Source: Candidatus Woesearchaeota archaeon (GTDB lineage Archaea; Nanobdellota; Nanobdellia; Woesearchaeales; SKIA01). Taken from it: a stretch of 64,000 nt of DNA. The stretch is from assembly GCA_046704725.1 (NCBI GenBank), contig JBJKRI010000003.1, positions 93,758 to 157,757 on the forward strand, read 5' to 3'. The notes beneath the pieces were generated by a model, which worked only from the letters and a program-made list of their open reading frames with translations, had not been told where the DNA came from and did not search any database. This document shows, piece by piece, positions 16,053 to 59,683 of the stretch. Every line of letters begins with the position of its first letter. Position 1 is the first letter of the stretch. Made by a program: the position numbers and the translations under genes.

Positions 16053-16599
16053 TTACCGGAGCCGCGGGATGCTGGTGTTCGCTACGCGCGCGAGCGCTTC
16101 GTGCGTGACGTCCGGACGATGCCGCACATTCGGCTCGTAGATGTCGTATGAGGGGTTGGTGAGTCCTGTCTGGCGCCACATCCTCTCTAGCTCGTCGCGG
16201 AAACCTTGCGAGAGGACGTAATCCAGTTGTGTTTCGGGGTGCTCCCACCAGAGCTTCAGGAATTCCTCTCCGGGCCGCGCTTCGTGCATCGCGTCGGGCT
16301 CGACGAGCAGCCGATAGACGGTGATGCGGACATCCTCGAAGAGTCGTTCGCGGACCAGCAGCGGGGCTGTCGAGAGAGGACGCACCGCTTCTTTCGGGAT
16401 GCTGGTCTCTTCGGAGAAATGCCGCCGGGCGAGTTCCGCGCTCCCTTGCATGGGAGCGATCTTTCCTGGGATGACCCATTCGTATGGATAGCGCGACGGC
16501 CGTCCGGCAACCTCGTTCCACGGCTTCCGCTGCCCGAGCAGCGTCTGCAAGCCCGTCGGTGTGTATGCTTGCCCGATGGCTGCCGTCAATTCCCGCATC
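16053..16599 (-). CDS. hypothetical protein
   Basis: 182-aa C-terminal portion (from MRELTAAIG) of a 489-aa GC-artefact ORF; does not overlap the dhs start at 16674. Confidence 0.35.
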
Positions 16600-16673
16600 T
16601 CGCTTCGGATGCTGCCCGTGCTTATCAGTCCTATGGAGGATTCCTTTTTATACGGCGGCCTGTTCCGGCCATC

Positions 16674-17672
16674 ATGACCGACGAATTCGTCTCTGAGGGC
16701 ACCGGACGGCTCAGCCACATGCCTGAGCCCACCACGACGCTCGACGACCATCCCGACGTCCACGGTTTCGACCTCGGCGAGGAATTGTCGGCTTCCGGTT
16801 TGCTCGACGCCATGGGCAGTATCGGTTTCCAGGCCACGCACTTGTCGCGAGCCCTCGAGGTCGTGAAAGCGATGCGCCGCGAGGGCGCCACCATCTTCTT
16901 CTCCTTCACAGGCAACATGGTCTCTTCCGGGGTGCGGGATCTCATCCGCTATCTCGTCGAGCACGAGTACGTCGACGCTCTTGTCACCAACGCCGGCGGC
17001 GTGGAGGAGGATATCATCAAGTGCTTCGCGCCTTTCAAGATCGGCTCGTTCACCGTTCCCGGCCATGTCCTGTTCGAGAAGGGCGTGCACCGCATCGGCA
17101 ACATCTTCGTGCCGACCGACCGCTACACCAAGCTCGACCAGTGGCTCACCCCGCGCATGGATTCCTATTTCGAACAACACAAGGTCGTTCGTCCATTGGA
17201 ATTGCTCAAGTGGGTCGGTCAGGAGCTCGATGACGACAGCAGCATCCTGACATGGGCGTCGCGCAACGACATCCCTGTCTTCTGTCCTGGCCTGCACGAC
17301 GGCAGCTTCGGGCAGTTGTTCTACTTCCGCACCCACAAGGACAAGGAGTTCGTCGTGGATATCGCGCGCGAGAACAAGGCGATGATTGAATTGGCGTTGG
17401 GAGCGGAGAAGACCGGCGCGATCATCCTCGGCGGTGGTATCAGCAAGCACTGGACATTGCTTGGAAACATCTTCAACGACGGATTGCAGTACGTGGTCTA
17501 TATCAACACGGGCATCGAGCATGACGGCAGCGACTCCGGAGCGGCGACCGAAGAGGCGGTGACCTGGTCCAAGATCCGTCCCGACGCCTTGGCGGTCAAG
17601 GTATGGTGCGACGCGACGATCGCCTTTCCGCTCTTGTGCGCGGGCTGGATGTCTTGGGAGCGCTCGCGATGA
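16674..17672 (+). CDS. dys: deoxyhypusine synthase
   Basis: 332 aa from MTDEFVSEGT; FFSFTGNMVSSGVRDLIRYLVEHEYVDALVTNAGGVEEDIIK conserved DHS core; TATA cctttttatacgg upstream. Confidence 0.85.
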   Translation: MTDEFVSEGTGRLSHMPEPTTTLDDHPDVHGFDLGEELSASGLLDAMGSIGFQATHLSRALEVVKAMRREGATIFFSFTGNMVSSGVRDLIRYLVEHEYVDALVTNAGGVEEDIIKCFAPFKIGSFTVPGHVLFEKGVHRIGNIFVPTDRYTKLDQWLTPRMDSYFEQHKVVRPLELLKWVGQELDDDSSILTWASRNDIPVFCPGLHDGSFGQLFYFRTHKDKEFVVDIARENKAMIELALGAEKTGAIILGGGISKHWTLLGNIFNDGLQYVVYINTGIEHDGSDSGAATEEAVTWSKIRPDALAVKVWCDATIAFPLLCAGWMSWERSR

Positions 17673-40520: not shown

Positions 40521-40592
40521 GGCGGTTGTAGTGTAACGGTAACATGGGAGACTGTGGATCTCCAGTAGAGGGTTCGACTCCCTCCTTCCGCC
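40521..40592 (+). tRNA. tRNA-His (anticodon GTG) with G-1 and C73; acceptor stem contains two U-U mismatches
   Basis: G-1, GCGGTTG...CTTCCGC, D-arm GTGT/ACAT, anticodon stem GGAGA/TCTCC loop CTGTGGA, T-arm GAGGG TTCGACT CCCTC, discriminator C. Confidence 0.6.
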
Positions 40593-40593
40593 C

Positions 40594-43151: not shown

Positions 43152-43933
43152 ACATGGAGAAGCTCTTCGAGGACGGTAATGTGCTCGCTTTGCACATCAC
43201 GGGCGTCCTGCCCGCGTACATCAACACGCTGCGTCGTTACATGGCCAGCCGCGTGCCGACCATGGCGATCGACAGCGTGGAGTTCAAGAGCAACAACAGC
43301 ATCCTGTACGACGAGATGGTCGCGCACCGTCTCGGATTGCTCCCCCTCACCACCGACCTGGAGACCTATCGCCTTCCCAAGGAGGAATGGATCGAGCCCA
43401 CGGGCGATCCCCGCGTCGAGGTCCAGCTCTCGTTGAAGGTGCCGAAGGTCAAGTCAGAGACCGTGGTCCGCGCCAAGGATCTCTCGACCAAGGACAAGAA
43501 GATCGTGCCGGTCTACCCTGACATGCCGATCGTCAAGCTCATGGAAGGACAGGACATCGAGCTCGTCGCGACCGCTCGCCTCGGTATCGGGGAGGGGCAC
43601 GCGAAGTGGAGCCCCGGTCACGTCTGGTACCGCCATTTCCCGCATATCGCCATCAAGAAGCAGCCCAAGGACCCCAAGGCACTGGTTGAGCGCTTCCCCG
43701 GCGTGTTCGAGGTCAAGGGCGGCAAGCTCGCGCTCACCAAGGACGCCGCGTACCGGATGCCCGACATGGATATCGCCGACGACGGGATCGAGGTCTCGTT
43801 CGCCGACGACGACTACATCCTCACGGTCGAGAGTTGGGGACAGCTCACGCCCAAGGAGATAGTGAATCAAGCGTTCAGTGCGTACGACGACCAGCTCGAC
43901 GAGTTCGCCAAGCTGGTGAAGGAGATCAAATGA
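43148..43933 (+). CDS. rpoD: DNA-directed RNA polymerase subunit D (Rpo3)
   Basis: [26 protein letters not shown] dimerisation motif; ATGA overlap with S11. Confidence 0.8.
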
Positions 43934-44015
43934 GGGTGTGCCGGAGTGGTCAAACGGGCACGCTTGAGGGGCGTGTGGCTTAGTGCCTGCGAGGGTTCGA
44001 ACCCCTTCACCCTCA
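43932..44015 (+). tRNA. tRNA-Leu (anticodon GAG)
   Basis: acceptor GAGGGTG/CACCCTC, anticodon stem CACGC/GCGTG loop TTGAGGG, long variable arm, T-loop TTCGAAC, discriminator A. Confidence 0.8.
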
Positions 44016-44031
44016 GACAACGGAGACAACG

Positions 44032-50649: not shown

Positions 50650-51201
50650 ATGGCGAGAATGCCTTCACGTTCGAACGTCTGGATTATCCTCGGTGTTGTG
50701 CTCGTTGTGCTCGCTGTGGTGTTGCTGGTGAATAATCTCGAATCTTCTACCTCCAGCACGGTGACGACCAGTCCGGATGGCACGCTCGCGGGCGGACAGC
50801 AGCAGACGACCCCATCACAATCACCGTCCGCCGCGACCGGCGCGGTCACGTACCAGATTGATGCGTCCGGCGTCAGCGACCTCGCGGGCGTGCAGCTCAC
50901 GCTCACTTATGATCCTTCTGTCGTGCAGTACGTGAACGCGACCCCCGGTCCCTTCCTCGGCACGGGCAAGGATATCTTCTACCCGACATCCACTATCCAG
51001 ACCGCTCCCGGGCTCGTGCGTGACCTCGTCCTCGTGCGGCTCGCCAAGCAGGGCGTCTCCGGTGGCGGGACGGTCTTCTACGTGCATTTCAAGCGCGTGT
51101 CCACGGGCGATCCGAACATCCATATCTCGGATGCCCTGGTCGCCAACTCTCAGGCGCAGAAGCTGCCTTCCGCGGATATCCGCGGGCAGCTCGTCGGCTG
51201 A
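50650..51201 (+). CDS. secreted cohesin-like domain protein
   Basis: signal/TM anchor, Ser/Thr linker, LTLTYDPSVVQYV..FYVHFKRVSTG beta-sandwich pattern. Confidence 0.4.
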   Translation: MARMPSRSNVWIILGVVLVVLAVVLLVNNLESSTSSTVTTSPDGTLAGGQQQTTPSQSPSAATGAVTYQIDASGVSDLAGVQLTLTYDPSVVQYVNATPGPFLGTGKDIFYPTSTIQTAPGLVRDLVLVRLAKQGVSGGGTVFYVHFKRVSTGDPNIHISDALVANSQAQKLPSADIRGQLVG

Positions 51202-51994: not shown

Positions 51995-52050
51995 AATGAG
52001 CTTTGTTGTCGAACGCGATGTTTTTTAAGAGCGTTTCCTGTCCTCGCCGC

Positions 52051-55000
52051 ATGGATTTCGTCGCGATCGCCGCAAAATGGCAGGAACGCTGGGAAAAAGA
52101 CGCTATATTCGCCGCAAAAGAGGTTAAAGACGGCCTATACGTCCTGGAGATGTTCCCCTATCCCAGCGGGACCATGCACATGGGGCACGTGCGCAACTAC
52201 AGCATCGGCGACGCCCTGGCGCGCTTCCGCTGGATGCAAGGCCATAGCGTCCTGCATCCCATGGGCTTCGACAGCTTCGGCCTGCCCGCCGAGAACGCCG
52301 CCATCAAGCAGAAGGCGGACCCCCGCGCGTGGACCGAGAAGAACATCGCGCACATCACCGAGCAGTTCAAGCGCCTCGGATTGTCGTACGATTGGTCGCG
52401 CACGCTCGCGACCCACACGCCCGAGTACTATCGCTGGAACCAATGGCTCTTCCTCGCGTTCCTCGAGAGAGGCCTCGCCTACCGCAAGGAGGCTCCGGTC
52501 AATTGGTGTCCGAGCTGCCAGACCGTGCTCGCGAACGAGCAGGTCATCGACGGCAAGTGCTGGCGCTGTGGAAGCGAGGTGGAGACGCGCAATCTCAAGC
52601 AATGGTTCTTCCGCATCACGTCCTACGCCGAGGAGCTCCTCGCTGACCTCGGCACGCTCGGGGAGTGGCCCGAGCGCGTGCGCACCATGCAGCGCAATTG
52701 GATCGGCAAGTCCACCGGCGCGCGCGTGAGCTTTCCCGCCAAGGACGGCGCGGTCGAGGTGTTCACCACGCGTCCGGACACGTTGTATGGCGTGACCTAT
52801 CTTGTGCTCTCGCCCGAGCATCCGCTCGTCGCTCGCTTCACCGTCAAGCAGAAGGAGAATGAGGTGCAGGCCTACATCGCCGCCGCCAAGAAGAAGACTT
52901 CCATCGAGCGCACGGCGGAAGGAAAAGAGAAGACCGGTGTCTTCACGGGCGGCTCTGTCACGCACCCCCTCACCGGGAAGGAGATCCCTGTCTGGGTCGC
53001 TGATTACGTCCTGATGGATTACGGCACCGGAGCGGTGATGGGCGTTCCCGCGCACGACCAGCGCGACTACGACTTCGCCTCCAAGTACGGCATCCCCATC
53101 GTTCCCGTCGTGAAGCCCGAGGACGGCAAGATGCCGACGGACCGTGCCTTCGTCGCCGAGGGCACGCTCATCAACAGCGAGGATCTCGACGGCCTGTCCA
53201 CCGACAAGGCCATCGCCGCTGTCGCAAAGCGCTTGGCAAGCGACGGTCTCGGCCGGGCCGAGACCCAGTATCGCCTGCGCGACTGGCTGGTCAGCAGGCA
53301 GCGATACTGGGGAACGCCGATACCCATCGTCTACTGCGAGGAATGCGCGAAGCACGATGTCTTCATGTTCCACGGCTGGGAGGACGGCAAGGACGCCGGC
53401 TTCTTCCCTGCGATGCGCGAGCACCTCTCATCCCTCGGCCACCGGCCGCATGCGGAGAGCTTCCCGGGAACTGACGCACCTGATTTCGACGTCTGGTTCG
53501 AGAAAGCGGACGGCATGCTCGATGGGCATGATAGGCCGACCGTCATCGGGCATTCCATGGGCGGCCTGCTCTCCCTCAAGCTCGCCGAGAAGCATCCATT
53601 GCGGCGGCTCGTGCTCGTCGCTCCCGTCGGCCACCGGCCATCGGAGGCGTACTTCACGCAATACAAGGATAAGCTCTCCGAGGAGGACCTCGCTGTCTAT
53701 CGCGCCTATCAGGACCGCCCTTTGGACGTCGCTGCCATCAAGGGCAATGTGTCGGACATCACGTTCGTCTTCGGCGGCAAGGACCCTTGGATAACGACGG
53801 AGATCCGCGAGAAGTACCGTGCCGAGTTCGGCGATGTCGCGCATTTCATCGATCTGCCTTTTATGGGGCACATGTCCGAGAGCGAGGGCGTCAAGCGCGT
53901 GCCCGAGCTCGAGGCCTTGTTCGTGCAAGAGGCCGCCGCGGTCCCCGTCCCCGAGAAGGACCTGCCCATCCTGCTCCCGACGGACGTCTCGTTCTCCGGC
54001 GAGGGAAATCCCATCGCGACGAGCAAGAGCTTCGTCGAGACGACCTGCCCGAGGTGCGGCAAGCCCGCGCGACGCGAGACGGACACGATGGATACCTTCG
54101 TGGACAGCAGCTGGTACTACCTGCGCTATTGCGATCCGCACAACGGCGAGCGCATCTTCGATAATGATAAGGCGGACGCCTGGATGCCTGTCGACCAGTA
54201 CATCGGCGGCATCGAGCACGCCATCCTCCACCTGCTCTATAGCCGTTTCATCACCAAAGCGACGCGCGACATGGGACTGCATTCCGTGGACGAGCCGTTC
54301 GTGCGTCTCATGACGCAAGGCATGGTCCTCAAGGACGGCGAGAAGATGTCCAAGAGCGTCGGCAATGTCGTCGACCCCTTGCCGCTCATCGACAGGTACG
54401 GTCCGGATACCGTGCGTGCCTTCATCCTCTCTGCATCCTTGCCGGAGAAGGAGATGGAGTGGTCCGACGAGGGTGTCGCGGGTGCGCACCGCTGGCTGCG
54501 CCGCGTCGAGGCGCTCTTCGAGAAACAGCAAGAGCGTAGGGAGCGGACCAGTGCTGATGCGTACTTGCGTAGCGCGGTGCATCGCACCATCAAGGACGTG
54601 ACCGCGCAGTTCGAGGGCATGCGCTTCTCCCACGCGATCAATTCGCTCATGGAGCTCACCGGCGCCATGGCGCGCTACGCCAAGAACGGCGTCCATCCGG
54701 ACGTGTGGTCCGAGGCGACAGAGGCGCTGCTCAAGATGGTCGCTCCGATCGCGCCGCACCTGGCCGAGGAGATCTGGCACCGCAACCATGATGATTACAT
54801 CAGCCTCGCGTCATGGCCTGTCGCGGACGAGTCCGCCATCGACCGTGCGGCGGAGGCCGGAAGGGACCTTGCCGATCGCACGCGCGATGACCTGCGCGAA
54901 GTCCTCTCTATCGTCGACCTCTCGCCGAAAGAAGCGGTATTGTTCGTTCCCGCCGATTGGAAGTACGCTTTCGTCTCCGCGCTCAAGGACGCATTGGAGG

Positions 55001-55281
55001 GGTCTTCTGATGCCGGAGCGATCCTCAAGGAGCTGATGAAGACCGATCTCAAGCGCCACGGGAAGGAGATCTCTAGGCTCGTCCCGCGCTTCGTCAAGGA
55101 CCGCTCCAAGCTTCCCGCGCACCTGCTCTCTAGGGAGGAGGAGGCGGGCGCCTTGTCGGAGGCGGCTTCCGCATTGGGCACGGAGTTCGGCCTGAAAGTG
55201 ACGGTGTTGGCGGAAGAGAAGGCGAAGGACGCGAAGGCTTCGCAGGCCTTGCCTGGCAAGCCTGCCATACTTCTACGATGA
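52051..55281 (+). CDS. leuS: leucyl-tRNA synthetase (bacterial type) with inserted alpha/beta-hydrolase domain
   Basis: [41 protein letters not shown]1 editing region; ~195-aa YdeN/RBBP9-like serine hydrolase module (FMFHGW...GHSMGG...) between CEEC and CPRCG zinc-knuckle halves; TATA ttttttaaga 21 nt upstream of [10 protein letters not shown] start. Confidence 0.9.
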
Positions 55282-55928
55282 TATCCGTCCGGCCGTACAA
55301 GGATTCCGACCGTTCCGCCGTGCGACGCATCCACTTCGATACCTGGCTTGTCGGAAGGTCGTTGCGTATGGTCGGCGCGAGCCGGGAGCGCGTCGACGCG
55401 TTCATCAACCCGTACATCACGCGTTGGAAAGAGCATGCTTTTGTCGCCGTGGACGGAAAGCGTGTGGTCGGCTACGTCGTCGGAGCGTTTCCCGGGGAGG
55501 AGCAGGGCAACAACGACCATGTCAGGATCGTCTTGCGCAATGTGCTGTCCTGGCCCGTCCTCTCGAAGGGCGACAGGCGTTTCTGGGGCTGGCAGCTACG
55601 CATCATGCTGTACCTGATGACGCACCCCGGAACGGACGTCCTTGCTGTCAAACCACCGAGGGACGCCGCTCACCTGCACGTCAATCTCGCGAAGGACGCG
55701 CGCGGCAAAGGTATCGGTAAGAAACTGCTCGAGACGTTCTTTTCGCATCTGCGAAAGAACAGTATCAAGAAGGTCTTCGCACAGAGCTGGGGCACGCGCA
55801 TCAATGACACGAGTGGTTTCTGGCGCAAGATGGGCTTTCGCTTGGCAGCGCATGCGAAGACGCGCTTCTGGAAGGAGTATTTCCCCGAAGAGAGTGTTGA
55901 ACTGACGATGTGGGTGAAGAAGCCATAG
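55278..55928 (+). CDS. GNAT family N-acetyltransferase
   Basis: [14 protein letters not shown] motif A. Confidence 0.6.
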
Positions 55929-56741: not shown

Positions 56742-57722
56742 CTATGGCAGCACGCCCGTCACGATCACGTTGCGCGTGTACAGGTCTCCTGTATCCCCCT
56801 GGATGACGCAGACGTTCTCTGTCGTGTTGCGGATGATGAGGTTCTGCGAGCCTGAGAGCGGTATCTGGTTGGCCTCCTCGTGCGGTGTGCCTTCCAGGTA
56901 GAGGTCTCCCGTGTCCGTGATCCACGCGGTATCGCCATTCGCGGTGTGCACGGTGAAAGCGTTGCCCGGCGCGGGTCCCGTGGCGTTGACGTGGATGTCT
57001 CCCGCGAGCAATACGCGCCCGTGCTTGTCGAAGAGCGCGACCAGTCGCCCGTTGTGGTCGGTGATATTCAGGTGTCCGGTCTGCGAGATGCAGTAGCCGA
57101 CGTGGCACATGTCTCCCGCTGCGCAGTCGCTGTCGACGTGGCAGTCGCTCGGGATGTTCACGTGCTGGTACGCGCCGGCGGTGTTGTTGATGGTCGTGTT
57201 GATGGTCCCGTTCGTGGGGGTCTGGGGCGTGTTGATGAGCTGCGGCGAGACGTAGTGGATGCTGGAGAGGGTGAAGTTGCCTCCGGTCACGCTGACCTGC
57301 AGGTAGAACGGCCCTTCCATCGTCTGGTTGCAGGTCTGGTCGCACTCCTGATCGAGGATGTGCGTGTACGTCAGGTTCGTCCCGGTGCCCAGCCGCACGA
57401 CCGTCCCGCCCTTGTTGAGCAGGAAGCTCGCGTTGCTCGGCGTCGCGGGAGCGGTGTAGCTCGCAACGTGCCACGAGCCGTTCGGCCCGACGAGCTGGAC
57501 ATTCACGCTGCCGCTTCCCGTGTAGCGTCCGTCGAGCGTGAGGCTGGTCAACTGGTTCGGCAGTGTCAACGGCACGACTCCAGAACCCGTCAGGTTGATG
57601 TTGAGGTTCTGCGTCTGCTCACCGACCGCGACCGAGAAGCCGCTGATGCCGGTGTTCGCGAACAATGCGAATGTCGCGACGATGCCGAGGAGGAATCCGG
57701 AGAGGATGAGCTTCTGGTTCAT
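56742..57722 (-). CDS. secreted Thr/Asn-rich beta-rich surface protein
   Basis: N-terminal TM/signal, many NxT/S sequons, Cys-rich segment; ATGA-coupled to upstream tail-fibre-like gene. Confidence 0.45.
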   Translation of the reverse strand: MNQKLILSGFLLGIVATFALFANTGISGFSVAVGEQTQNLNINLTGSGVVPLTLPNQLTSLTLDGRYTGSGSVNVQLVGPNGSWHVASYTAPATPSNASFLLNKGGTVVRLGTGTNLTYTHILDQECDQTCNQTMEGPFYLQVSVTGGNFTLSSIHYVSPQLINTPQTPTNGTINTTINNTAGAYQHVNIPSDCHVDSDCAAGDMCHVGYCISQTGHLNITDHNGRLVALFDKHGRVLLAGDIHVNATGPAPGNAFTVHTANGDTAWITDTGDLYLEGTPHEEANQIPLSGSQNLIIRNTTENVCVIQGDTGDLYTRNVIVTGVLP

Positions 57723-59683
57723 TGCAATGTCACCACCAGTCCTTGCGCGGAGTTCGTCACCGTGCCTCCGCTGAGCTGCACGGGCGCGTTGTAGTATTCC
57801 GGCTGGATGAGTACCTCGATGGTCGAGTCGCTCGTCGCTGGTTGCAATGCACGTCCGATCACTTCACCGCTCGCTGTCGCTTTGGCGCCCACGCCCGGCG
57901 TGGAGGAGATGCCGATGCGGTCGCCGATGCTGATGTTACCATTCACTGTGGAGACGCGCATATAAGCCTTTCCGGTCGTCGCGACCGGGTAGCCGCCGCT
58001 CTGCGCGGGTCCTGTCACGATGCCGATGATCGGGTCGTCGGTGTTGTTGGCCTTGACGACGTCGCCGGCGTTCGTGGTGTCGAGCGCGACCAGGTCGCCT
58101 CCCGAGAGCAGTTCTGTGGAGTTGTACAGGTCCGTCGCGGACGCGACGCCGATCGGCTTGCCTTTCTGGAGGCTGTCGATCTCGGCCTGCTGTTGCTGCA
58201 ATGCCTTCACGATGGTCGGCACCATCGCCGTGTAGCTCACTGCCAGGTGGCCGTCGGGGGATGTCGCGACCGCTTCTGGTATCGTCGTTTGCACGTTCTG
58301 CGCGAGGAAGCCGTGCTGCACGCCTGCCTTGGGGCGGTCCTTCCAGCTGAAGTCCACCACGTTGAGCCCCTGGATGCGGGTGAGCCCGTTGATTCCTGAG
58401 TTCTGTATGCCGGTCTTGAGGCGCTGGTCGCTTACTGTATAGAGCTGGAATGTGCCGTTGTTGGCGATGTAGCCGACCTGCGTCCCGTTCGCTGTCAGCG
58501 CGTTGAGATAGTACGTCGTTCCGCTGCCGTTGTATGCTCCTGCGCTGATCTGTATGCCGTAGCGGTTGCTGTTGTTGCCGTCGTTCTTGAAGTACGCGGC
58601 GTATCCGCTCGGCGCGTTCACGTTCACGCTGATGTTGCCGCGCGTGAACAAGGCACCGTTATGCTCGATGTAGAAGCTCGTGTCCCTGTTGCTGCTGTTG
58701 GTTCCGTTGCCGATGATGAATGCCTGGTCGCCCGCGACGTAGCTGTTCCCGGTTCCCTGCAGCGTGTTGTATCGTCCGATGACCGCCTGCGCGTAGCCCT
58801 GTGCTGTCAAGCCGAGGCCTCCTGGCACCGAGCTGTAGTATCCGCTTGCCGTGTTGGCGTTCCCGCCGAGTATCGTGCCGTAGTATCCGCTTGCCGTGTT
58901 CCCGGAACCGCCGCCGACGAAAGCGTCCTGTCCGGCGGTGTTGCCTGACCCGCCTGCGACGACTGCGTAATCATTGTTCGCCAGGTTCTGGTTCCCACCG
59001 CCGATGAACGTCTCGTAGCCGGTCGCATTGTTCTTGTTGCCTCCCGCGACGGTGCTTGTCACGCCGCTCGCGATGTTCTGGCTGCCTCCGCCGATCGATG
59101 CTCCGGCATTGCTCGCGGTGTTCTGGTATCCCCCGCTGACTGTGCTCTGCGCGGCGCTCGCGGTGTTGCGCATGCCGCCGCCCACGACGCTCTGGTTGCC
59201 GCTCGCTACTTGTGTGGCGCCGTTCCGGTCGGTCTGCAGGTCCACCGCGTTGGCTCCGCGAGCGTTGCCGCCGCTGCTGACGATGCTGCCGTTTATCGTG
59301 AGCACGCCGTTCACGAACAGTGCTGTGGTGGGGCTCGAGGTGTTGATGCCGACAAAGCTGTTCGTGTTGTCCACGAAGAACGCTCCCGCGCTCAGGTTGT
59401 TCGCGCTGCTAACGAGACTGACCAGCGCGCTCGTGTTCGTCCAGCCGCCTCCCGAGCCGCCGCCGCTCGGCCAGGTCGTCTGGCAGGACCCTGCCAGGCA
59501 GATCCGTGTGGTCGCATTGAGGGTGCCGTCGATGGTCACATTGCTCGGGAAGATGAAGTTGCCCGCGGCGAACGTCCCGCCGCCGATCTCGCTCGCGCTG
59601 TGCCCGGGGTTCGGCGTGTACGCCATGGCGAGCGGCAAGAGCAGCAATACCAGGAGGATGAGTGGTTTACGCATGCTTCTCAC
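57719..59683 (-). CDS. tail-fibre-like surface protein with internal peptidase S74 intramolecular chaperone domain
   Basis: signal peptide; GNTASG/GGNQN pentapeptide-like repeats; SDQRLKTGIQ...GLNVVDFSWKD...HGFLAQNVQTTIPEAV...YTAMVPTIVKALQQQQAEIDSLQ matches S74 (SDxRxK autocleavage and helical tail); ~145 aa extra after chaperone. Confidence 0.65.
   Translation of the reverse strand: MRSMRKPLILLVLLLLPLAMAYTPNPGHSASEIGGGTFAAGNFIFPSNVTIDGTLNATTRICLAGSCQTTWPSGGGSGGGWTNTSALVSLVSSANNLSAGAFFVDNTNSFVGINTSSPTTALFVNGVLTINGSIVSSGGNARGANAVDLQTDRNGATQVASGNQSVVGGGMRNTASAAQSTVSGGYQNTASNAGASIGGGSQNIASGVTSTVAGGNKNNATGYETFIGGGNQNLANNDYAVVAGGSGNTAGQDAFVGGGSGNTASGYYGTILGGNANTASGYYSSVPGGLGLTAQGYAQAVIGRYNTLQGTGNSYVAGDQAFIIGNGTNSSNRDTSFYIEHNGALFTRGNISVNVNAPSGYAAYFKNDGNNSNRYGIQISAGAYNGSGTTYYLNALTANGTQVGYIANNGTFQLYTVSDQRLKTGIQNSGINGLTRIQGLNVVDFSWKDRPKAGVQHGFLAQNVQTTIPEAVATSPDGHLAVSYTAMVPTIVKALQQQQAEIDSLQKGKPIGVASATDLYNSTELLSGGDLVALDTTNAGDVVKANNTDDPIIGIVTGPAQSGGYPVATTGKAYMRVSTVNGNISIGDRIGISSTPGVGAKATASGEVIGRALQPATSDSTIEVLIQPEYYNAPVQLSGGTVTNSAQGLVVTLQ

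Follow-up and report, generated by a model that had tools for sequence, protein, structure and literature searches.

The stretch of DNA analyzed here, referred to below as the window, comprises 64,000 nt of contig JBJKRI010000003.1 from a Candidatus Woesearchaeota archaeon (GCA_046704725.1) and contains a leuS gene whose product, a leucyl-tRNA synthetase (LeuRS), carries an alpha/beta hydrolase resembling YdeN and RBBP9 within its second zinc module. In the list of open reading frames (ORFs) the leuS frame extends without interruption over 1092 codons of the forward strand (52003-55281). It opens at a TTG codon (52003), but the true start is probably the ATG at 52051, since the homologs and the deposited NCBI protein (P0004; 1076 aa and 100% identical to the window LeuRS) begin there, at the same 10-residue sequence; residue numbers given below are nevertheless those of the 1092-codon frame. 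The enzyme is of the bacterial type, scoring 965 bits against the NCBIfam equivalog model TIGR00396 (cut-off 548.4), and its nearest database relatives are the LeuRSs of Woesearchaeota, Nanoarchaeota and other DPANN archaea.

Alignment with the LeuRS of Thermus thermophilus (1h3n) using phmmer matches residues 21-449 to T. thermophilus residues 8-443 and residues 646-777 to residues 444-579. Because the alignment breaks gaplessly at this point, residues 450-645 represent a clean insertion of 196 aa between Gly443 and Val444 of the T. thermophilus enzyme. Within Zn2 the insert occupies the tip of the first knuckle, approximately 30 residues past the exit of the CP1 editing domain, and is flanked by CEEC-A on one side and on the other by a 10-residue segment leading to CPRC, which lies 36 residues beyond the insert; DPANN LeuRSs that lack an insert read C-x-x-C-G-(T/M)-VPVPE at the same position. 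The second zinc module was named Zn2 in work on the Neisseria gonorrhoeae LeuRS (PMC9424281) and differs from the ZN/ZN1 switch studied in the Escherichia coli enzyme (PMC13454842). The linkers are only about 3-7 residues long; in a structural model of the isolated domain (see below) the first strand (beta1) begins three residues inside the insert and the last helix stops at the junction. A preliminary description of the locus, made from the DNA sequence alone, had recognized both the continuous 1092-codon frame and a YdeN/RBBP9-like hydrolase in the zinc knuckle, and its coordinates for the insert (53350-53937) were correct to within 2 nt. The alignment with T. thermophilus LeuRS that it proposed yields the break at 443/444 noted above, although its estimate of about a dozen residues for the normal linker is too short, the Cys pairs of the T. 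thermophilus enzyme being approximately 41 residues apart (Cys442 to Cys484).

Taken alone, the insert matches the Pfam family PF06821 (Ser_hydrolase) with 40.0 bits (cut-off 22; E = 4.9e-10) and spans positions 3-170 of the 172-position profile, which bears out the Pfam check suggested in the preliminary description, and generic Abhydrolase families of Pfam match it as well. The best matches in the PDB to a profile built from the insert and three relatives are human RBBP9 (E = 1.7e-11) and Bacillus subtilis YdeN (E = 2.4e-10). An AlphaFold2 (AF2) model of the full-length protein, with a mean predicted local distance difference test score (pLDDT) of 90.4, superposes on the Thermus, E. coli and N. 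gonorrhoeae LeuRSs; in the alignment used for it, free-standing hydrolases were misaligned and the insert reached a pLDDT of only 59-92, hence a second, domain-only model was generated from an alignment of 109 sequences (pLDDT 96.0; predicted template modeling score, pTM, 0.92). Foldseek ranks YdeN (1uxo; template modeling scores 0.82/0.86) and RBBP9 (2qs9/7oex; 0.79/0.85) first for this model, clearly ahead of other esterases.

The residues characteristic of the PF06821 family, namely the Ser-Asp-His triad (Ser518, Asp594, and His623) and the HG dipeptide that begins with His457, are all present. These residues (H8, S69, D145, and H174 in module numbering) do not vary in an alignment of 23 relatives or in one of 109, and the Gly of the HG motif is at least 90% conserved in the former; the GHSMGG elbow and the Asp and His candidates had been picked out in the preliminary description. 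As was also stated there, the module is unique within the window, no second copy having been found in it. Like RBBP9 and YdeN, which are minimal, lid-less alpha/beta hydrolases of approximately 190 aa, the module has the order HG...GxSxG...D...H and the same order of strands; it differs in being only 15-19% identical to them, in having approximately 12 additional residues after beta6, and in being embedded in another enzyme. The model and the alignments indicate that the module is an autonomous fold in which the catalytic residues have been kept. Between the window protein and the LeuRS of another insert-bearing contig, P0005, the inserts are 52.6% and the host parts 52-55% identical; since these identities are alike, the insert is under the same degree of constraint as its host synthetase.

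The alternative in which the insert is an artifact, whether a chimeric assembly, a separate gene fused by a frameshift error, or an intein or other mobile insertion removed before the protein works, is almost certainly wrong and can be regarded as effectively refuted. Two observations might be taken in its favor, in that the exact window protein is known from one NCBI contig only and the patchy spread of the insert among close LeuRS relatives resembles that of a mobile element. However, the frame is continuous with both flanks in register with LeuRS, no start, stop or frameshift occurs within leuS at the insert, and GC content at third codon positions (GC3) is even, at 0.82 for the insert and 0.83-0.86 for its host flanks, so that a chimera or frameshift was rejected. 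An intein or mobile DNA was likewise rejected, in agreement with the preliminary description as regards an intein: the fold is that of an alpha/beta hydrolase, splice residues are absent from the boundaries, the insert beginning with Lys450 (after Ala449) and ending ...QEAA645 before Ala646, a Pfam scan of the window LeuRS and insert gave no Hint, intein, LAGLIDADG or homing-endonuclease match, and no direct repeats flank the insert boundaries. The identical junction moreover recurs in independent assemblies from NCBI, JGI, ENA, and Logan. It is found in P0005 (a Logan assembly), in a nanoarchaeotal LeuRS (P0125) represented by four NCBI accessions as well as in JGI, ENA, and Logan, and in four GTDB species representatives, three of them DPANN archaea (L012, L015, and L016) and one Ca. 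Falkowbacteria (L017); the search for the same insertion elsewhere that the preliminary description recommended was thus positive.

The synthetase into which the module is inserted keeps every LeuRS signature, including HIGH (as HMGH), KMSKS, both zinc motifs, and the CP1 editing residues. Pfam detects the tRNA-synt_1, PF13603 (editing) and Anticodon_1 domains, and CP1 follows ZN1 and contains both TTRPDT and a second, 15-residue motif. Of 267 LeuRS alignment columns with a conservation of 90% or more, the protein deviates at only 11, and HIGH, KMSKS, TTRPDT and HDQRD are untouched. The leucine-specific domain that precedes KMSKS in Thermus and E. coli was not found in the window LeuRS, T. thermophilus residues ∼580-636 being without counterpart in the phmmer alignment, and the C-terminal domain of bacterial LeuRSs is likewise lacking from the window protein. 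Its C-terminus instead matches PRK12300 and TIGR00395 (residues 727/770-1091) and residues 638-966 of the Pyrococcus horikoshii enzyme (1wz2). Absence of the leucine-specific domain together with an archaeal-type C-terminus is typical of the DPANN LeuRS clade. As region 54300-55281 of the window shows, this LeuRS and its DPANN relatives are hybrids in composition, with a bacterial-type core, CP1 after ZN1, and an archaeal-type C-terminal domain.

The embedded hydrolase is not confined to this protein. An exhaustive search of 1.84 billion cluster representatives with a hidden Markov model (HMM), each representative standing for a cluster formed at 50% identity, detected 2162 relatives at E <= 1e-3, 18 of them at E <= 1e-30, and hosts were surveyed for the best 150 of the 2162. 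Thirty-four of these 150 representatives are LeuRSs with an embedded module, making LeuRS the commonest fusion host (34 of approximately 49 fused representatives). Three positions are used, all of them in or beside CP1 in sequence. Site A, the Zn2 knuckle, is that of the window protein and the commonest; Site B is the hairpin entering CP1, just before FTTRPDT (e.g., P0059, at L001 699-3899, P0132 and P0141); Site C is a loop within CP1 (e.g., P0153, P0177, P0198, and P0266). P0141 contains two tandem modules at Site B, the second with GQSLG instead of GHSLG. Host LeuRSs include proteins with the DPANN-type C-terminus and others with a bacterial C-terminus ending ...KLVNIV, and the hosts that could be named belong to Nanoarchaeota, Ca. 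Portnoybacteria (UniRef100_A0A1G2FBJ3), and Ca. Dojkabacteria. In the LeuRS-embedded copies the catalytic Ser is kept in all 34 and the Asp in 33, and the His aligns in 25; visual inspection places a corresponding His in eight of the nine copies without an aligned one, and in P0201, the remaining copy, the protein ends before this residue. Nearly every full-length fused LeuRS retains the CP1 motifs TTRxDT and GTG..HDxRD. Other LeuRS inserts share only ∼25% identity with the window module, implying that capture took place independently several times. Judged from these sequences, LeuRSs of DPANN archaea as well as of Candidate Phyla Radiation (CPR)/Patescibacteria have acquired Ser_hydrolase modules, which belong to several subfamilies and use three insertion points in all.

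A tight subfamily of 16 clusters, sharing 40-50% identity with the window module, includes only approximately two free-standing proteins; the fused members are found in LeuRS at Site A or B, in FtsY, and in the ribosomal proteins uL22 and eS19, and the window module is 46-49% identical to the uL22-, eS19- and FtsY-fused copies. In FtsY the module occupies the acidic N-terminal region (P0126, P0128, P0129, L011, and L014); one of these proteins, P0128, also bears a histidine phosphatase domain. The uL22 fusion has the module at its N-terminus and is encoded in an L23-L2-S19-(hydrolase-L22) operon (P0001, at L007 1659-2732, and P0127), and the eS19 fusion has it at the C-terminus (P0134). Among GTDB species representatives, the tight subfamily is found four times in LeuRS, twice in FtsY, and once free-standing. 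Elsewhere the hydrolase is fused to NUDIX alone and to a PBP1, and distant family members are very common as free-standing proteins of ∼185 aa in Patescibacteria.

The hydrolase is also not the only small enzyme accommodated by these synthetases. Hydrolase-bearing LeuRSs may additionally contain NUDIX (P0132, P0135, P0141, and P0177), Ham1p_like (P0143 and P0151) or GNAT (P0149) domains, and a free-standing hydrolase is encoded 3 nt upstream of an isoleucyl-tRNA synthetase (IleRS) with a His_Phos_1 insert (L010 4558-8034). NCBIfam holds a model, NF040702 or "ileS_w_GNAT", for IleRS with an N-acetyltransferase domain. Class Ia synthetases of the CPR thus carry extra small enzymes, often beside the hydrolase, and on this comparison LeuRS resembles a hub into which "housecleaning" domains are inserted.

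Features of the leuS locus and of the remainder of the window
Feature	Coordinates	Strand	Basis
leuS coding sequence, 1076 aa plus stop (probable start)	52051..55281	+	ORF, TIGR00396, homolog starts
HMGH (HIGH signature), class I synthetic site	52177..52188	+	conserved in LeuRS alignment
ZN1 / CP1 hairpin, first zinc knuckle, CPSC...CWRC	52507..52569	+	naming from PMC9424281, PMC13454842
CP1 editing domain (PF13603, aa 231-411)	52693..53235	+	Pfam and motifs
TTRPDT, intact CP1 motif	52765-52782	+	motif reading
15-residue motif, intact CP1 motif	53023-53067	+	motif reading
CEEC, first Zn2 Cys pair (C445, C448), = T. thermophilus C439/C442	53335..53346	+	alignment
YdeN/RBBP9-type serine hydrolase insert, aa 450-645 of the 1092-aa frame (434-629 of the 1076-aa protein)	53350..53937	+	
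HG dipeptide His457-Gly458, oxyanion-hole motif after strand beta1	53371..53376	+	conservation
Catalytic Ser518 in GHSMGG nucleophile elbow	53554..53556	+	alignments
Catalytic Asp594 in GGKDPW	53782..53784	+	alignments
Catalytic His623 in GHMSESEG	53869..53871	+	alignments
Remainder of Zn2, conserved 14-residue stretch through CPRC, = T. thermophilus 444-487	53938..54057	+	
CPRC, second Zn2 Cys pair (C682, C685), = T. thermophilus C484/C487	54046-54057	+	
KMSKS loop	54343..54357	+	motif and T. thermophilus alignment
Anticodon-binding domain (Pfam aa 852-976), then archaeal-type C-terminal domain ending ...PGKPAILLR	54556..55278	+	
GNAT acetyltransferase gene, ATG overlapping leuS TGA (ATGA)	55278..55928	+	
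Deoxyhypusine synthase domain (aa 199-479) in 488-aa open frame	16206-17672	+	
tRNA-His(GTG)	40522-40593		
tRNA-Leu(GAG)	43931-44016	+	
Small protein with signal-anchor-like N-terminus and cohesin domain	50650-51201	+	
326-aa protein	56742-57722	-	
654-aa protein with Peptidase_S74 domain	57719-59683	-	

The GNAT gene that overlaps the leuS stop codon is possibly translationally coupled to leuS and may belong to the same system; its product most closely resembles RimI among the NCBIfam models, with a weak match. A specific tie between this protein and the GNAT insert of P0149 was considered and rejected, the similarity being generic (21% identity, E = 0.007). Two genes upstream of leuS is the gene for the small cohesin-domain protein, a domain not usually seen in small-genome archaea, and a tRNA-Leu(GAG), a cognate substrate of this LeuRS, is encoded 8 kb upstream; the window also contains a tRNA-His gene. 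Further downstream on the opposite strand, the gene for a protein with a Peptidase_S74 (endosialidase chaperone, tail-fiber-like) domain is followed by one for a 326-aa protein that gave no Pfam match, and the two may constitute a surface or phage-derived adhesin pair. The deoxyhypusine synthase, an archaeal/eukaryotic marker, is preceded in its frame by an N-terminal stretch of approximately 198 aa that may represent an over-extended ORF call or another fusion. On the P0005 contig (L002 7799-8409) an L13-S9-RpoN cluster comes before leuS and a PIN/VapB toxin-antitoxin pair after it, and no synteny around leuS is conserved between that contig and the window.

The explanation that probably accounts best for these observations is that the gene encodes a functional LeuRS to which a housekeeping aminoacyl-hydrolase is tethered. 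This assessment mainly expresses confidence in the parts that were observed directly, i.e., a real, intact and recurrent module in a functional LeuRS, and the likelihoods assigned to it and to the other explanations are rough and not mutually exclusive. The Zn2 hairpin has received, in frame, a complete YdeN/RBBP9-family gene without its start and stop codons, and the product would be a bifunctional protein in which a normal, editing-competent LeuRS holds an active hydrolase on short linkers beside CP1. RBBP9, the family member known in most detail, is an aminopeptidase that forms an aminoacyl-Ser intermediate, requires a free alpha-amine and removes N-terminal residues (PMC8866121), and Shenoy et al. 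(2020), as cited in PMC7730578, report that it activates valacyclovir, a valyl ester. By analogy, the substrates of the module would most plausibly be alpha-aminoacyl carbonyls, esters or amides, and its activity would be a housekeeping one, tethered to and co-expressed with the translation apparatus. The proteins to which the module is fused indicate a tie to the translation machinery at large more than to tRNALeu in itself. It would not substitute for CP1 proofreading, because the editing motifs of CP1 are intact; a role in compensating for a decayed CP1 was rejected for the same reason, which applies to the window protein and to nearly all fused LeuRSs. Since CP1 is intact, a housekeeping role is ranked above a module parked without functional connection, and the latter above a third proofreading site.

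Several points weigh against the tethered housekeeping hydrolase. We know of no substrate for B. subtilis YdeN itself. Compared with RBBP9, the lid region that separates beta6 from the next helices has approximately 12 extra residues, and the RBBP9 ligands of the alpha-amine, Ser76 and Glu108, are not clearly conserved, GHSMGG having Met in place of Ser76, so that transfer of the RBBP9 substrate class to the module is weak. The insert-bearing DPANN LeuRSs are not one another's closest relatives, being 59-63% identical to insert-less enzymes vs. 51-56% to one another, and their distribution is patchy. The genes neighboring free-standing relatives are mixed (rpsP-trmD, ileS, rpoB, a DEAD helicase, or nothing telling). 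The occurrence of NUDIX, Ham1, GNAT, and His_Phos in LeuRS and IleRS of the same lineages means that permissive loops, instead of a functional link, could lie behind the preference for LeuRS.

This last point leads to the possibility, itself rather unlikely, that an unrelated housekeeping enzyme has simply been parked in a permissive loop, as would happen where ultra-reduced genomes fuse small enzymes (Ser hydrolase, NUDIX, Ham1, GNAT or His phosphatase) into large essential proteins, gaining only co-expression and genome compaction and having no mechanistic link to leucylation or translation. NUDIX, Ham1, and GNAT occupy the same LeuRS sites, IleRS has received His_Phos_1 and GNAT domains, the hydrolase is joined also to NUDIX alone and to PBP1, and the family is abundant in free-standing form in Patescibacteria. 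Against this, apart from NUDIX and PBP1, the partners of the tight subfamily all act in translation or protein targeting, only approximately two of its 16 clusters are free-standing, and permissiveness by itself hardly accounts for repeated, independent capture by LeuRS with none by the structurally similar IleRS and valyl-tRNA synthetase (ValRS). A broader proposal, which is tentative and rather doubtful at present, is that the YdeN/RBBP9-like hydrolase is an unrecognized, translation-associated alpha-aminoacyl ester/amide hydrolase of CPR and DPANN organisms that selection has repeatedly welded onto LeuRS (at the three sites near CP1), uL22, eS19, and FtsY; it would be a third editing/deacylation site, a scavenger of aminoacyl esters or thiolactones, or an aminopeptidase acting on nascent chains or peptides and thereby feeding or policing charging.

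The narrower idea of a third hydrolytic quality-control site, which would deacylate mischarged or damaged aminoacyl-tRNALeu or destroy non-cognate aminoacyl-adenylate or homocysteine thiolactone leaving the synthetic site, in cis beside CP1, is improbable. It draws on the fact that an aminoacyl-tRNA is an ester of an alpha-amino acid, and RBBP9 accepts aminoacyl substrates with a free amine (PMC8866121) and, as cited in PMC7730578, a valyl ester prodrug; all three insertion positions adjoin or lie in CP1, LeuRS is by far the commonest host, and such short linkers suggest a fixed pose rather than a loose tether. However, the CP1 motifs are intact wherever they are readable, leaving nothing to replace, the nearest relatives of the module are free or on uL22, eS19, and FtsY, where tRNALeu is not an obvious substrate, only 3 of the 120 nearest DPANN LeuRSs have the hydrolase, and the module is without similarity to the YbaK, AlaX, DTD, and Pth deacylases in Pfam and NCBIfam, none of which appears among the Foldseek PDB matches listed. 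The extra proofreading activity suggested in the preliminary description accordingly finds no specific support.

Insertion of domains into aminoacyl-tRNA synthetases is a known theme (PMC13114784), and CP1 itself, the classic case of a hydrolase built into a synthetase, resembles the module in being a hydrolytic domain joined by two short connections to the Rossmann-fold body of LeuRS (PMC13114784). CP1 is nevertheless of another fold, threonine-rich and without a serine nucleophile, whereas the module uses a Ser-Asp-His triad; CP1 occurs in every LeuRS, IleRS, and ValRS and demonstrably deacylates tRNA, whereas the module is sporadic and any link between it and tRNA is hypothetical. Factors that edit in trans or deacylate as free-standing proteins (YbaK/ProX, AlaX, DTD, and Pth) represent the reaction class that a proofreading role would require, i.e., hydrolysis of aminoacyl- or peptidyl-tRNA esters, but are not alpha/beta hydrolases and have no kinship with the module in sequence or fold. 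To our knowledge, the hydrolytic domains so far found inside aminoacyl-tRNA synthetases (CP1, INS, and the N2/AlaX type) all serve fidelity. The ileS_w_GNAT proteins and the CPR LeuRSs and IleRSs with NUDIX, Ham1, GNAT or His_Phos domains are closer parallels, likewise being class Ia synthetases of uncultivated lineages joined to a small enzyme; the inserted family differs, and no published mechanism was found for them. Literature searches, with most subscription journals outside their coverage, found no published LeuRS-alpha/beta-hydrolase or LeuRS-NUDIX architecture. The preliminary view that the fusion is undescribed therefore stands as far as papers are concerned, but it is not a one-off, given the 34 LeuRS clusters, and the architecture is already present in NCBI and UniRef under automatic names; no paper was found on its recurrence either.

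In two domains of life, LeuRSs have thus repeatedly and independently acquired a catalytically intact Ser-Asp-His hydrolase, at three sites that bracket the editing domain, and the closest relatives of the hydrolase are joined to ribosomal proteins and to the SRP receptor, FtsY. This suggests either a new translation-coupled quality-control or housekeeping activity, or that ultra-small genomes generally graft "housecleaning" enzymes onto class Ia synthetases. The fusions could provide the YdeN/RBBP9 family with a first physiological substrate and, if the hydrolase does prove to be a translation-associated factor, would give this orphan family its first physiological role.

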